DNA of 64,000 nucleotides from a phage. The translations under genes and the position numbers were made by a program. Position 1 is the first letter of the stretch; every line of letters starts with the position of its first letter. The DNA lies in the sequence record PZ019086.1; one strand, given 5' to 3'. The notes beneath the pieces were generated by a model, which was given only the letters and a program-made list of their open reading frames with translations, searched no databases and had not been told where the DNA came from. Shown here one piece after another: positions 1 through 5,617 of this stretch.

Positions 1-2
1 CA

Positions 3-224
3 AACGGGCTTAAAGCAATCGTTCTTGAAGAAACAACCTGCGAATTCTGCGGAATGATAGGCAAGAAATGCGTTATCGCAGCGCATAGAAATTTCTGCAA
101 GAAAAATCCAAATGGACGCAAGAAAACTGAAAAGACTGGTACTTGCGTCCATTGTGGTAAAGTTACCACTTTCGGAAATTTATCAAGATGGCATAATGAT
201 AATTGTAAATATAAACCTAGCTAA
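3..224 (+). CDS. Partial CDS (C-terminal fragment entering from upstream of the window) with two C-x2-C...H-x3-C zinc-binding motifs; converges on gene 46
   Basis: Frame 3 is open from position 3 to TAA at 222-224; translation ...CEFCG...HRNFC...CVHCG...WHNDNC; its end overlaps the gene 46 stop. Confidence 0.3.
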   Translation, partial: NGLKAIVLEETTCEFCGMIGKKCVIAAHRNFCKKNPNGRKKTEKTGTCVHCGKVTTFGNLSRWHNDNCKYKPS

Positions 225-1905
225 TCTTAGCTAAACTAAATCTACCAACTTTTTCCATTTGAATGTGCTGACCATATTCCTGTGGGTCATGGTCTTTATG
301 CGAAATTATGAAGAAGTTGGTATCCTTCAAACCATCTAAAATTTTAGCCACATTTTTAATACCTTCAGCATCAAATGCACCGTCATATACTTCATCAAGA
401 AATAAACAACTTATTTTAACACCTGAAACTTTTTCAGCAATATCACGCCAAGTAAATAAAAGAGCAATATCAATTCGCGCTTTTTCACCTTGACTAAATG
501 AAGCATAACTAAAATCTTCACGACCACGGGATTTAATTGTCTCATTAAATTCTTCATCTAATGTAAACACATAATCCGCTTCCATTATTTTAAGATAATG
601 GTTAATCTGCTTATTAAATAATGGAATGTACTTTTTAATAATAGCACCTTTAATACCAGAATCTTTGAGCATATCAGTCAAAATTCCTCTATGGTATTTT
701 TCCATTACTAAATTAGTTTTTGTCTTAACAATTTTATCAAGTTCTTCTTGAAGCAGTGCTATTTCATCAGCATGATCAATAAACTCAGATGATGCTTTTT
801 CTATAGCCGCTTTAACCTTTTTAGCTTTATCTACCGTCGTGATTAGAGATTGCTTTTTATTGCGAATATCATTCGCCAACGTCTGCTGGGTTTTAATATT
901 ATCTCGGTATTCATCAACAAGAACTTTTAAATTATCACGATGTGTTGAAAGCTGTTCAAATGAATGCGTGCATTCAGAAACTTTATCTTTAATTTTAGAA
1001 ACAACTTTATCACCGGAACTTAATTGTGACAAACAGGTTGGACATAATCCACCTTCGTGATACATATTAATGACTTTATTATACGAGTCAATTTTTGATT
1101 TAATTAAAAATGCTTCTTGACCGATTTTATCAAATGCATCAGTCGGGTCTTCATCCAAAACAATATTAACTAATCTTTCATTAGCTTCTTCTATTTCCGA
1201 TTTTAACGTTCTAGCTTCTTTTGCCAAATCATCATACATATTCTGCAGACGAGTAAGGTTATCACCAGTTAATTTTTTCTGGCGTTCAACGTTATCATTA
1301 TATATTTTAATTTGTTGGATAATACTATCTTTTTTAACATCAAGCACTTGGTTTTGTGAATTTAATTCACGTATTAGTGCTTTATTAAGCTTATCCATTT
1401 CAGCTAATGTTCCTACCTCAAGCAGGTCTTCCACAAGCTTTCTTCGCGCAGGGGTCGACAAACCCATGAAAGGGGTATACCCTGCTGTACCAAGGACAAC
1501 AATCTGCTTGAAACTGGCATATGACATTCCGATAAGCTGTTCAAATTCTGCTTGGAAATCTTTACTGCTGGCAGATTCATTAAGACGTGTACCGTTAACG
1601 GTGATTTCGAAAACGTTTGGTTTTTGTCCTCTTTTGATATAGTACTTTTTCTCATCATATTCCATCCACAGTTCAACTAAAAGTTCTTTCTTATTTGTGC
1701 TGTTTATTAATTGGCCTTTCTTTACATCACGGAATGGCTTGCCAAAAAGCCCAAATGTGATGGCTTCTAACATAGTAGACTTACCACCACCATTTCGCCC
1801 AGTAATAAGAGTTTTTTGAACCTTATCTAATTGAATGTCAACTCCATTTTGACCAACTGACATTATATTTTTATATTTTACTCTATTAAGTTTAAATGAT
1901 TTCAT
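217..1905 (-). CDS. 46: Recombination endonuclease ATPase subunit gp46 (SbcC/Rad50-like)
   Basis: 562 aa; N-terminal Walker A GRNGGGKST; long coiled-coil middle; C-terminal Walker B LFLDEV; sits beside an SbcD-like gene as in T4. Confidence 0.9.
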   Translation of the reverse strand: MKSFKLNRVKYKNIMSVGQNGVDIQLDKVQKTLITGRNGGGKSTMLEAITFGLFGKPFRDVKKGQLINSTNKKELLVELWMEYDEKKYYIKRGQKPNVFEITVNGTRLNESASSKDFQAEFEQLIGMSYASFKQIVVLGTAGYTPFMGLSTPARRKLVEDLLEVGTLAEMDKLNKALIRELNSQNQVLDVKKDSIIQQIKIYNDNVERQKKLTGDNLTRLQNMYDDLAKEARTLKSEIEEANERLVNIVLDEDPTDAFDKIGQEAFLIKSKIDSYNKVINMYHEGGLCPTCLSQLSSGDKVVSKIKDKVSECTHSFEQLSTHRDNLKVLVDEYRDNIKTQQTLANDIRNKKQSLITTVDKAKKVKAAIEKASSEFIDHADEIALLQEELDKIVKTKTNLVMEKYHRGILTDMLKDSGIKGAIIKKYIPLFNKQINHYLKIMEADYVFTLDEEFNETIKSRGREDFSYASFSQGEKARIDIALLFTWRDIAEKVSGVKISCLFLDEVYDGAFDAEGIKNVAKILDGLKDTNFFIISHKDHDPQEYGQHIQMEKVGRFSLAKIS

Positions 1906-1920
1906 TTTGTATCCAATTGT

Positions 1921-2775
1921 TCACAATGAAGAAAATTCTTTAACTAAAGCCTGTAATGAAGCCTCTATTGGATATCCATTCTTAACTAACATTTTCCTAA
2001 ACATCACATGTTTAGGACGATTATATGATATCCACAATTCATACAATTTATCTTTATTATCCCAATGATAGCCTTTTCGTCGAGATGCTATATGAGCTTT
2101 TCTAATCTCCGGATTTTTCCAACTAGCGGCTACTGAATTTGATATAGCTATTTTATATTCAGGTTTTGATAAAGCAACACGAACAGCCTTTTGGTGTTTA
2201 ATTTTATTTTCTTCGTTATTAAACCATTCCCTTGAAGCCATTGAAATTTTTTGTTTTGTTTTAAAATTATTTAATCTTTCTTTGTTATCTTTCCTATTTT
2301 TTGCTACTGAAAAGTATTTTAATGCTCTTTCTCTAGCAGCATTTCTATTTTGTGGATTTGAATAATATTGTTGAAGCCTTTTTGATATTGTGTCACTTAC
2401 ATCTTGTTTTATAAAACTATATTCAGCAGCTATTAAATCAACTTCGGCTAAAGATAAATTTTTATATGTTTTTCCTGACATCATTCTATTTAAAGCATTT
2501 AGCATTTTTCCATTTTTACCTTTTGCTAATAAGAAATGTGCTTTAAAATGATTAAAATGACTTAAATTAACTAAATTCCATGTAGATTTTAAATATTCAG
2601 GAAATATTGATTTAGGAAGCACATGGTGTGCTTCCGTTTTACCTGGAGTTTTAACAGTTGAATTCATAGAAATAAAATTAATGTAAGACTTGGCGTCTTC
2701 TTCACTCAACGCTAATTTTTCAACTAATTCCTTTATTAAAAATTCATCATTAATGTCAAGTTTAAAATTCTTCAC
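1921..2775 (-). mobile_element. Freestanding HNH homing endonuclease (Mob-like) with C-terminal NUMOD-like repeats
   Basis: 284 aa; motif EAHHVLPKS...NLVNLSHFNHFKAH typical of HNH Mob proteins; basic repeated C-terminal segments; lies between genes 46 and 47. Confidence 0.55.
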
Positions 2776-3035
2776 AAAAGATTCCTTTTAATGTATCTTT
2801 TAGACCATTCTATCATATCATCATAATCTAAAAAGTATTCATCAAATTCAGCCATGCAAACAACACCTTGTGCTGCTTTTGATGTGATATAAATTATTCC
2901 AACATATCTAGAATCTTCTTCGGTGTAATCAATATTTGCTACGAATTCATCGTTAATGTCAAATGTCGAAAACTTCACAGTATGCATCCTTAATACAAGA
3001 TACAGCCATATCTTGTAATGATTTAGGTGTGTCAT
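2772..3035 (-). CDS. Hypothetical small protein
   Basis: 87-aa ORF in the minus-strand array between 46 and 47; no recognised motif. Confidence 0.45.
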   Translation of the reverse strand: MTHLNHYKIWLYLVLRMHTVKFSTFDINDEFVANIDYTEEDSRYVGIIYITSKAAQGVVCMAEFDEYFLDYDDMIEWSKRYIKRNLL

Positions 3036-3222
3036 TATCTAAAATGTTGAAGTTAAAAGATACAGCCCAGTCAGTGCAGACCGTGACCTTTTTAATACAA
3101 TTATCTTCAACCTCTAGCGGTTCAAACCAATATTCAATAATTTCTTTATGCCCAATATCATCTTTTACTTCGCATTCAAAATGCTGACTCATCATAACAT
3201 TTTTAAATTCATCAAAAGTCAT
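2959..3222 (-). CDS. Hypothetical small protein (start may be internal)
   Basis: 87-aa ORF; overlaps the downstream ORF by about 77 nt; stop is coupled to the gene 47 region. Confidence 0.45.
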   Translation of the reverse strand: MTFDEFKNVMMSQHFECEVKDDIGHKEIIEYWFEPLEVEDNCIKKVTVCTDWAVSFNFNILDNDTPKSLQDMAVSCIKDAYCEVFDI

Positions 3223-4238
3223 TGTGTTGCCTCTACATATAACTGATTTGCATATTGAATAAGTGCTTCGCGGTCAGAATCAGTGATGTCTGGAATTGCA
3301 TTAATGTATTCTTCCATCAACGTCTGAAGAGATTGAACTTCAACTTCTTCACTATCATCTGACTCGACAGAGTTATCAATCTTTGACACAACTCGTAATG
3401 AATGCACAACTTTTTCTAGTTCAGATTCGAACTTCGTTAGATTTTTGTCTACTTCAGTTACTATAACACGCACTGATAGATTTGTAAAATCTTTATAGTC
3501 AATTTTTCCCTTAAATGGATATTGAATTCGACGATGCCAGGTAGTGTTGTTTGGAATAAATTCCATTCGTTCTGTTTCTGTATCAAACATCCAGAACCCG
3601 CGAGGGTCATTCTCGTCACCTGCAGTTAATGTCCATGGTGTCCCAATATATTTGACGTTAGCAGCCTCAGAGATAGTATGGAAGTGACCAGACCACACCT
3701 CTTTATAAGTCTTAAGGAAATCAGGTTCAAGACCGTGAGATTTCATTCCTTTATAAAAATAAAATCCATTCAGTTCCCAGTGACCAACACAAAAAGAAGC
3801 AGATGAAGTTTTGATGTGTTCAAGAATTTCACCAGTATTTTCTTCACACATCCAAGGAATTAAATCAATCAAACATCCGTCAAAATCTACTGTAGTAGGC
3901 TTATCATATACTTTAACATTAGGATATTTAGCCAGAAGCTCAGTAGAAGCATTTGGATGCATTACATTTTTGTAGTGGAGATCGTGATTTCCTACAATAG
4001 TATGTAATGTGATTCCAGCACCATCAAGCATTTGAACTATTTCACGGGCAAACTCCATAGTTTTATGCGTGATCGCTTTTCGTACATCAAAAATATCACC
4101 GTATTGAATCCATACCGTAATTCCATTTTTCTTAGAATATTCTATCGCTTGCTTAATTCCATCAATTTGAATACCGCGAATCCACTCATCATCAGCTTTA
4201 ACACCTAAATGCCAATCACCTAAATTTAAAATTTTCAT
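3219..4238 (-). CDS. 47: Recombination endonuclease nuclease subunit gp47 (SbcD/Mre11-like)
   Basis: 339 aa; N-terminal phosphoesterase motifs LGDWHLG, GDIFD, GNHD; size equals T4 gp47. Confidence 0.9.
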   Translation of the reverse strand: MKILNLGDWHLGVKADDEWIRGIQIDGIKQAIEYSKKNGITVWIQYGDIFDVRKAITHKTMEFAREIVQMLDGAGITLHTIVGNHDLHYKNVMHPNASTELLAKYPNVKVYDKPTTVDFDGCLIDLIPWMCEENTGEILEHIKTSSASFCVGHWELNGFYFYKGMKSHGLEPDFLKTYKEVWSGHFHTISEAANVKYIGTPWTLTAGDENDPRGFWMFDTETERMEFIPNNTTWHRRIQYPFKGKIDYKDFTNLSVRVIVTEVDKNLTKFESELEKVVHSLRVVSKIDNSVESDDSEEVEVQSLQTLMEEYINAIPDITDSDREALIQYANQLYVEATQ

Positions 4239-4398
4239 ATATCAAGAACCGTCATTGAAATGCAAAATAAAATTATTGAAATAAATCCATCTGGAGTGCT
4301 AAAAAACCCAATCCAACATGCTCTAGTGAATAGATAAAATGCGAGAAAAAGTATCACATATCCAAGAAATATCATTATATCAAACTCCGTATAAAGCT

Positions 4399-4416
4399 AA
4401 AGGGCCGAAGCCCTTT
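4399..4416 (-). terminator. GC stem with CGAA tetraloop at the 3' end of a-gt (terminator or RNA-stability hairpin)
   Basis: aaagggccgaagcccttt palindrome overlapping the a-gt stop. Confidence 0.4.
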
Positions 4417-5617
4417 ATTTTGTAATAATGTCAAACTGTTCTTTAAAGCAGAAGCTTGAATCTTGATGCTGATACAAAAATTCATAAGCTTTTTCGCGTT
4501 CACGGTCATAAAGAGCTCGGTCAGATGACAGTTCTTTAATACGCTCAAATGTTGATTCCATGTCATTTTCATCAAACCAAACGATACCGCTATCGTGTGA
4601 AATTAACGGAGTATTATCAACACGGAATTTTAAATTTTCGCCAGTAGATTTCCAAAATACCGGAATTGTTCCACATGCACCAAGCTCGAGATGAGTGTAT
4701 TCTAAAGAACGCTGTAGATATTTTTTGTCCAACTTACTCAGCTGATAACCAAATCCGGATTTACTCATGCGTTCAAGCATTTCGCTATTTACATAACGGT
4801 CGAGAATTTGCGTTGGCAAATTAGGAGCAATTTTAATTTGGTCTACTTGATGAAGACGATAATACTCGTATGGAATTCCTTTTTCTTTAATAGGAATGAA
4901 CGCTGGAGAACGTTCCAGACCTTCCATAATAGTACTTAGTCCTGCAGGTTTAAGATGTTTTTCGTGAAAATCAAACATCTGATAAAAACCTTTCCATGTA
5001 GTCGTACGACCAATCCAACGGTTGATATTCATGTTAATTTCAGAAACATCTTTCCAGTAGGTTGATCGAACCTTCGCAATATCCATAGGAGGCTGAAAGT
5101 TATATACGGTCGGTGCTTCTTCAATATCATCAAACAGAGAAACAGTTTCCGGATACCATTCTTTCATCAAAACTTTATTAAAGTCACCATTATCAGAATG
5201 GCTAAAAATAACATCAGCTCGACGAACAGTTTCTTCTAATCCCAAATTTCGACGCAAAGAAAGAGAAGAATGGTCATGCTGATAAACTACAACACGAACC
5301 GAAGGTTTAATGTTATCAATAATTTTTTTATAGTTATTAATTGTGTCTTCTTCGACTGAAGTAGCAGGAACTGAATTGATAACTAGAATATCACAATCAT
5401 TTACCAGCTTAAGCGTTTTATCGTATTCTTTTGCCAATAAAACCGGAATTGAAAATGATTTATAATCATGCGCGCAATTACGAGTAAATGATTTATCTTT
5501 AGCATAAACCAAAGTTACTTCATGACCATTTTTAATAAACCAATCACGCTGCTCAAGAGAAAATTTAGTTACACCGCAACCTTCAAGACCTCGAGCCATA
5601 AAAATACATACTTTCAT
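4415..5617 (-). CDS. a-gt: DNA alpha-glucosyltransferase
   Basis: 400 aa; N-terminus MKVCIFMARGLEGCGVTKFSLEQRDWF matches my recollection of T4 a-gt; size and position downstream of 55 match. Confidence 0.85.
   Translation of the reverse strand: MKVCIFMARGLEGCGVTKFSLEQRDWFIKNGHEVTLVYAKDKSFTRNCAHDYKSFSIPVLLAKEYDKTLKLVNDCDILVINSVPATSVEEDTINNYKKIIDNIKPSVRVVVYQHDHSSLSLRRNLGLEETVRRADVIFSHSDNGDFNKVLMKEWYPETVSLFDDIEEAPTVYNFQPPMDIAKVRSTYWKDVSEINMNINRWIGRTTTWKGFYQMFDFHEKHLKPAGLSTIMEGLERSPAFIPIKEKGIPYEYYRLHQVDQIKIAPNLPTQILDRYVNSEMLERMSKSGFGYQLSKLDKKYLQRSLEYTHLELGACGTIPVFWKSTGENLKFRVDNTPLISHDSGIVWFDENDMESTFERIKELSSDRALYDREREKAYEFLYQHQDSSFCFKEQFDIITK

Follow-up and report, generated by a model that had tools for sequence, protein, structure and literature searches.

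Gene content and coding features of the locus

The window analyzed here is a stretch of 64,000 nucleotides from phage sequence record PZ019086.1. It is a Tequatrovirus of the T2/T6/RB32-RB51 kind, with phage N2 as its top match (98.7% over 4.4 kb). The region around genes 46 and 47 contains the following genes:

217..1905, minus strand: gene 46, Rad50/SbcC-like recombination nuclease subunit with an SMC/Rad50-type ATPase, restarted by the insert
1921..2775, minus strand: Mob-like HNH homing endonuclease ORF, 284 aa, GTG start, TGA stop
2772..2978, minus strand: gene 46.1 (DUF5487), the stop of which overlaps the endonuclease GTG
2959..3222, minus strand: gene 46.2
3219..4238, minus strand: gene 47, Mre11/SbcD-like subunit, metallophosphoesterase

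These genes all read in the same direction (47-46.2-46.1-endonuclease-46), with 47.1 and a-gt as further same-strand neighbors beyond gene 47. The GTG start codon of the endonuclease corresponds to CAC at 2773-2775, where the ORF overlaps 46.1 by 4 nt, and its TGA stop occupies 1921-1923. An earlier note on this DNA had described a 284-aa ORF with an HNH signature at exactly these coordinates, and the motif that it quoted, TEAHHVLPKSIFPEYLKSTWNLVNLSHFNHFKAH, is present in the translation. A chance ORF is ruled out by the scale of the match to PHROG 655 ('homing endonuclease', E=8e-45), which covers aa 1-282, and the ORF is intact in eight of ten sampled carriers, the PZ019086.1 window included. 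GC content is 0.24-0.30 within the cassette compared to 0.30-0.41 in the flanks.

The cassette is inserted within the first codons of gene 46

Alignment of the window to T4 and other genomes delimited an insert that is 870 bp long in intact copies, with the following junctions:

1897..2766, unstranded: net 870-bp insertion relative to T4 and all other empty-site relatives, in which the site is contiguous
1888..1905, minus strand: left junction, consisting of the repeat AAGTTTAAA and the new gene 46 start ATGAAATCATTTAAACTT (MKSFKL)
2758..2775, minus strand: right junction, consisting of the repeat AAGTTTAAA and the T4-type gene 46 start GTGAAGAATTTTAAACTT (MKNFKL)

In T4, the 46.1 stop overlaps the gene 46 GTG start (GTGA) with no other gene at the junction, and the only genes between 46 and 47 are 46.1 (68 aa) and 46.2 (87 aa). 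This agrees with the statement in the earlier note that T4 has only small ORFs there and with its proposal of a free-standing insertion relative to T4. Its placement of the insertion between genes 46 and 47 is correct but too broad, as the cassette lies downstream of 46.1 and interrupts gene 46 after its sixth codon, a position that is no neutral spacer. We compared junctions and flanks in a sample of about 25 genomes. The same precise site was found in every sampled copy, with identical junctions in 10 of 10 carriers and contiguous empty sites in 13 of 13 Tequatrovirus non-carriers.

The insert is bounded by a 9-nt direct repeat, AAGTTTAAA, with copies at 1888-1896 and 2758-2766. On the coding strand, the right junction reads GTG AAG AAT TTT AAA CTT / GAC ATT, and the left junction reads TGA-ACAATTGGATACAAA-ATG AAA TCA TTT AAA CTT / AAT AGA. 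What was the T4-type gene 46 start now forms the opening six codons of the endonuclease, which has taken over the Shine-Dalgarno sequence, the GTG, the GTGA overlap with 46.1, and six codons (MKNFKL) from gene 46, while the 3' end of the cassette provides a 15-nt spacer followed by a new ATG and five codons that restore gene 46. As a result, gp46 remains a single full-length protein that differs from T4 by the changes K2K, N3S, and I22V. Gene 46 opens with GTGAAGAATTTTAAACT in all 13 empty-site Tequatrovirus genomes, while the first 15 nt of the new start, ATGAAATCATTTAAA, match exactly those with which gene 46 begins in RB69 (Mosigvirus), which suggests that the cassette may once have been located upstream of an RB69-type gene 46. 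The gene 46 start has also changed from a 46.1-coupled GTG to an independent ATG, which could alter gp46 dosage.

The ORF encodes a predicted Mob-family HNH endonuclease

To place the protein in a family, similarity searches were run at the level of single sequences and profiles. In addition to PHROG 655, the protein matched PHROG 12434 ('HNH endonuclease', 4e-15). A tblastn search of 50,697 phage records identified T4 MobD, with 29.6% identity across 83% of the 284-aa protein (E=9e-11). It also picked up Mob-like genes at the mobC site (nrdG/nrdD) of PST, Ozark, and KK4-type phages at 35-36% identity (E=2e-22); the genes matched in phage PST and its relatives carry the mobC annotation. MobD was the only T4 gene to reach significance, and MobE did not. 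At a cutoff of E<=1e-3, an exhaustive profile search returned 15,439 cluster representatives. When 61 and 67 diverse homologues were aligned, the invariant columns were Y31, H50, H51, P54, N67, H76, and H80, of which H50, H51, N67, H76, and H80 were also invariant in a 6-sequence alignment. The His(-His)...Asn...His motif of the HNH superfamily is therefore present and conserved across all three alignments, and the endonuclease, MobD, and the mobC-site relatives have in common the core EAHHVLPKSIFPE...WN...H...H.

Curated models were less informative. Neither Pfam (HNH models including PF01844 and PF13392, as well as NUMOD models) nor NCBIfam produced a match to the protein at E<=1, and PDB sequences returned nothing significant with phmmer using the protein or hmmsearch using the 61-sequence profile, where the top HNH-related match was a group II maturase En domain (E=0.95). 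Among the 61 homologues, Pfam matches were to NUMOD3 (28 of 61), HNH (PF01844; 6 of 61), I-HmuI_NUMOD-like (6 of 61), and HNH_5 (three). The following domain layout was obtained from the alignments and an AlphaFold2 model:

2524..2637, minus strand: predicted HNH beta-beta-alpha core, aa 47-84, with invariant H50, H51, N67, H76, and H80 (AlphaFold2)
2071..2361, minus strand: basic region, aa 139-235, with six predicted helices of ~16 residues each; presumed DNA-binding linker
1924..2070, minus strand: C-terminal three-helix domain, aa 236-284, colinear with the AV113-type endonuclease described below

The model has an overall pLDDT of 95.1, with strands at 47-51 and 68-72 followed by a helix at 73-84, all at pLDDT >90. 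The predicted strand-strand-helix order is that expected of a beta-beta-alpha fold, and the His, Asn, and His residues fall in the appropriate modeled elements. When the full model and the N-terminal model were used in fold searches, the matches were all generic helical proteins. The six-helix stretch spans aa 141-232, and the NUMOD3 match of remoter homologues maps to the equivalent position, aa ~134-154. The earlier note had seen basic C-terminal repeats resembling NUMOD modules in this part of the protein. The basic, helical character of aa 139-235 is borne out, but the likeness to NUMOD3 extends only to position and to that character, with Pfam PF07460 absent at E<=1, and an internal repeat in aa 121-240 is not significant (best self-match of 31 compared to a shuffle mean of 22.7, standard deviation of 3.7, and maximum of 36). 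Unlike the mobC-site relatives scanned alongside, aa 236-284 match neither I-HmuI_NUMOD-like nor NUMOD1, and we consider this C-terminal domain to be locus specific and putatively DNA binding.

The protein thus shares the traits of Mob-family members: similarity to named Mob proteins, an N-terminal HNH motif with a protein-specific C-terminal domain, and a free-standing, co-oriented gene. Judged by its sequence, the 284-aa ORF is a free-standing HNH homing endonuclease gene and an uncharacterized member of the T4 Mob family, in line with the Mob-like assignment that had been made from the letters alone. Its predicted function is metal-dependent DNA nicking or cleavage.

The gene looks like a promoterless cassette coupled to 46.1

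We searched the cassette for signals that could drive its own expression, including the kinds of control element described for mobE and I-TevI. Sigma-70-like promoter sites were not above chance (17 compared to 14.0 expected), the T4 late-promoter box TATAAATA was not found within 20 kb, and RNA structure at both start codons was not significant (z about 0). Since none of these signals stands out, the gene looks like a promoterless cassette that is translated from its GTG by coupling to 46.1. Several T4 seg and mob genes have the same promoterless, upstream-coupled expression (Edgell review, PMC2988022). The cassette contains no mobE-type internal terminator or RBS-sequestering hairpin that we could find. 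A terminator-like palindrome, GGAAGCACATGGTGTGCTTCC, at 2615-2635 was set aside as chance: it is a perfect 9-bp palindrome with a terminator-like score on the plus strand, but it is made up of the codons for EAHHVLP and is perfect only in the PZ019086.1 window, where position 2623 is unique among 10 copies.

The endonuclease gene is patchily distributed and has probably moved between genera

To determine how widespread the gene is, we searched for it among Tequatrovirus records. Approximately 72 records carry it at >=95% identity (at least 95%), out of ~504 with the 46.1/46 junction region (~14%). The gene is absent from T4 and from ~86% of close relatives, so it is far from uniformly present. 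A scan of IMG/VR with gp46.2 yielded six loci only, all of them empty sites. A copy that is 98-100% identical (94-100% per 50-nt bin) is present in two RB69-like Mosigviruses, NRG-P0074 and BEU50. Outside window coordinates ~1800 (NRG-P0074) or ~1825 (BEU50) to ~3060, their DNA is 96-100% RB69-like and 60-85% window-like. The transferred patch therefore amounts to ~1.25 kb in an RB69-like backbone and comprises the cassette together with 75-105 bp from gene 46 on one side and ~290 bp from 46.1/46.2 on the other, with different left breakpoints in the two phages. These near-identical copies within a divergent backbone point to recent, efficient transfer, and the element appears to have jumped between phage genera recently. 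Ordinary recombination without cleavage could, in principle, also account for the transfer into Mosigvirus.

Two of the sampled copies are decayed. The T2 copy has a 2-nt deletion that leads to a stop at codon 205, while the RB51 copy (RB51/RB68) has a 1-nt deletion that leads to a stop at codon 209; these frameshifts are independent, and both delete the C-terminal DNA-binding half. Substitutions among copies number ~21 at third positions compared to ~10 elsewhere, a rough count that suggests purifying selection on the ORF.

Phage Ac3 (OK040907.1) at first appeared to carry a 71% identical allele, which we dismissed as an artefact of the record. Compared to RB51, it has 836 substitutions and zero indels over ~3.4 kb, strongly biased to A>G and T>C, and the differences end at record position ~35,280 with none beyond. 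The divergence is almost certainly an artefact of the record, with no divergent allele behind it.

Decay of this kind raises the question of whether the copy in the window is itself an inactive, Mob-derived relic that is still open but has lost nuclease activity or target recognition and spreads by ordinary homologous recombination. The lack of a curated HNH model matching the protein would fit such a relic, as would the decay already seen in T2 and RB51 and the fact that activity has yet to be demonstrated for several of the mob genes of T4 (PMC2988022, Table 1). However, all family-invariant catalytic residues are kept, the substitution pattern suggests purifying selection, and 98-100% identical copies are found in two genera with backbones that are 60-85% identical. 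We regard the relic explanation as very improbable.

A second alternative is that the gene encodes a domesticated or retained HNH protein that no longer homes and has a role in phage competition or exclusion, genome rearrangement, or gene 46 expression. In its favor, the ORF is intact with a third-position excess in most carriers, the insertion changes how translation of an essential recombination gene begins, and SegB, a T-even homing endonuclease, is reported in a 2026 paper to benefit its phage by amplifying anti-defense loci (PMC13096335). On the other hand, a domesticated gene would have to be reconciled with its presence in only ~14% of close relatives, with the two independent frameshifts in T2 and RB51, and with a recent cross-genus transfer that left short flanking tracts. 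Domestication therefore seems unlikely, though less so than a relic. Given the patchiness, the frameshifts, and the cross-genus transfer, a selfish mobile element fits better than a fixed beneficial gene. We conclude that the locus very probably holds a mobile, free-standing Mob-family homing endonuclease gene that would home into the 5' end of gene 46; its product would consist of an N-terminal HNH domain, a linker of basic helices, and a C-terminal DNA-binding domain particular to the locus. The element is a tidy example of a selfish gene that has settled among the opening codons of an essential gene and done it no harm.

Carrier-linked changes point to a candidate target in gene 46

The flanks were examined for differences between carriers and empty sites. 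One position stood out:

1842..1843, minus strand: gene 46 nt 63-64, GGG ATT -> GGA GTT (I22V); carrier-linked, candidate immunity or target position

The carrier type at nt 63-64 (window 1843 and 1842) was found in 10 of 10 carriers and 0 of 12 empty sites. Besides the rebuilt start, these are the sole flank substitutions linked to the presence of the endonuclease, and the right flank (2767-3500, covering 46.1/46.2) has no carrier-linked SNPs. Carriers have the codons GGA GTT, while empty sites have GGG ATT (T4 type) or CCT ATT (RB14 type and RB69); RB69 also has A at nt 64. The shortest conversion tract, that of BEU50, still contains nt 63-64.

The association at nt 64 is imperfect. A 55-nt probe for the allele, used with every 28-mer seed spanning nt 64, matched 76 records compared to the 72 with the gene, and phage 235Ecol030PP has an empty site and a T4-type junction together with GGG GTT at gene 46 nt 61-66, that is, G at nt 64. 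The 235Ecol030PP allele may be an ancestral intermediate or an escape allele. The linked SNPs could also be just hitch-hiking markers of the original donor.

MobE nicks at nt 122-126 of the adjacent nrdB, and its own genome is spared through local polymorphisms (PMC2790892). Based on this analogy, the carrier-linked changes at nt 63-64, the divergence at the beginning of gene 46, and the codon 18-22 changes that accompany the AV113-type endonuclease described below, we infer that the most likely target is the stretch of gene 46 near codons 17-23, which immediately precedes the Walker A codons. During mixed infection, the endonuclease would nick or cut the empty allele of a co-infecting phage at the 5' end of gene 46, as MobE does in its own neighbor, and repair by recombination from the carrier genome would copy the cassette along with ~70-300 bp of flank. 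The carrier would be protected by the disrupted junction, by the linked GGGATT -> GGAGTT change, or by both. The life cycle of the element would then comprise invasion, cross-genus spread, and decay, the last represented by the frameshifts in T2 and RB51/RB68.

Gene 46 has a divergence hot spot in both genera, formed by its first ~100 nt. T4 and RB14 have 13 mismatches in gene 46 nt 10-105 and 0-2 per 48 nt afterwards, while RB69 and AV113 have 14 mismatches in the first 96 nt. Empty-site Tequatroviruses have two gene 46 N-terminal haplotypes over codons 6-22 (window 1842-1888): the T4 type encodes KYKNIMSVGQNGI, and the RB14 type, which matches RB69 at the protein level, encodes RYQNIMSVGGNPI. 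The two differ by 13 substitutions in ~47 nt, compared to a background of ~1-3%.

The available phages form a natural test set, with an intact copy in T6, frameshift alleles in T2 and RB51, and an empty site in T4. Also at hand are an empty allele with the candidate immunity SNP and a cross-genus transfer with mapped tract ends.

Other endonuclease insertion sites flank gene 46 and gene 47

Another HNH homing endonuclease gene, of the RB32ORF054w type, extends into the window with its C-terminal end at positions 1-224 (plus strand). This gene is labeled 'similar to mobB' in the RB51 record, where it is 714 nt long and located between 45.2 and 46. It is oriented toward gene 46 on the opposite strand, with an overlap at the gene 46 stop. 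The gene is restricted to a subset of carriers (N2, SYGD1, G28, Aplg8, and RB51/RB68), and it is also found in NRG-P0074 and Bp7. Gene 46 is 1689 nt long with the RB32ORF054w-type gene and 1683 nt long without it, and its last ~150 nt are a second divergence hot spot, with 12-19 mismatches per 48 nt.

Lutter, G28, PhiZZ23, F26, and LYE-01 have an extra ~600-bp 'HNH endonuclease' gene between 47 and a-gt (4480-5103 in the Lutter locus extract), and the equivalent site in the window, 4235-4400, holds 47.1. The stretch from 45.2 to a-gt thus has at least three alternative endonuclease insertion sites. Two of the sites are at the two ends of gene 46, which itself encodes part of the nuclease named among the homing nuclease candidates, 'possibly gp46, gp47', in the Edgell review (PMC2988022).

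Relation to known homing endonucleases

In T-even phages, free-standing Mob/HNH homing endonucleases are textbook knowledge. The RefSeq label of the gene is already 'homing endonuclease' in T2, T6, RB51/RB68, ECML-134, SHFML-26, Lutter, and others. Petrov et al. 2010 (PMC2993671) tabulate the number of homing endonucleases per genome, for example, one in T2 and two mob-like ones in RB32. Our literature search found no paper characterizing the endonuclease at the 46.1/46 site. The element is real but ordinary and represents no new kind of biology. Modest extras are the capture and restoration of the start codon, the mapped cross-genus transfer, the null alleles, the candidate immunity allele, and the second lineage described next.

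The closest paralogue is the AV113/F2-type 'MobD-like homing endonuclease' of Mosigvirus, which has 45% identity in a gap-free alignment of aa 24-281. Matches appear densest in the C-terminal domain, with ~63% identity over aa 217-281 by hand count of the printed alignment. This endonuclease is located between 46.2 and 46, where it replaces 46.1 (2444-3304 in AV113 locus-extract coordinates), and was found in 10 of ~155 Mosigvirus records (AV113 and nine others). It begins with MTKTDYE, the first seven residues of RB69 gp46.1, its end overlaps the gene 46 start, and it has linked changes of its own in gene 46, which affect codons 18-22 and differ from those of the carriers above. The two endonucleases are alike in locus, orientation, patchiness, and fusion to the first codons of the resident gene that was displaced, namely gene 46 (6 codons) in the window and 46.1 (7 codons) in AV113. 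However, the AV113 type replaces 46.1, whereas the endonuclease at 1921..2775 is inserted downstream of it, and the two represent separate lineages.

One possible, though rather doubtful, reading of this pair is that the 5' end of gene 46 (codons 1-23) is a long-standing battleground of one Mob sub-lineage. It would exist in two 45%-identical versions, one per genus, with recurrent start-codon capture followed by downstream restoration, and the N-terminal haplotypes would have arisen from endonuclease-driven conversion and escape. If true, this would explain the T4 type, the RB14/RB69 type, the AV113 type, and the A64G empty allele.

By sequence, MobD and the mobC-site homing endonucleases are the closest named relatives and have the same core. 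The C-terminus of the mobC-site relatives is I-HmuI_NUMOD-like or NUMOD1-type (at sub-threshold scores), whereas the endonucleases at 1921..2775 and of the AV113 type share a different, three-helix C-terminus. MobE resembles the endonuclease at 1921..2775 in having an N-terminal HNH domain and a distinct C-terminal domain. Both cassettes are promoterless, co-oriented, and overlapping with or coupled to the upstream ORF (PMC2790892), and both adjoin the 5' end of a conserved DNA-metabolism gene. Patchiness among T-even phages is a further likeness, as is the difference of a few nucleotides in the neighboring gene of carriers (PMC2790892). On the other hand, MobE is located at nrdA/nrdB rather than 46.1/46, and, unlike MobE, the insertion described here interrupts the beginning of the downstream coding sequence and reconstitutes it. 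Mob homing endonuclease genes inside an essential gene whose function is kept are known from Aeh1 (mobE in nrdA) and T4 (mobA in gene 60/39) (PMC2988022). In Aeh1 nrdA and T4 60/39, the host gene is split into two polypeptides, whereas at gene 46 only six N-terminal codons are displaced, and these are supplied again by the cassette.
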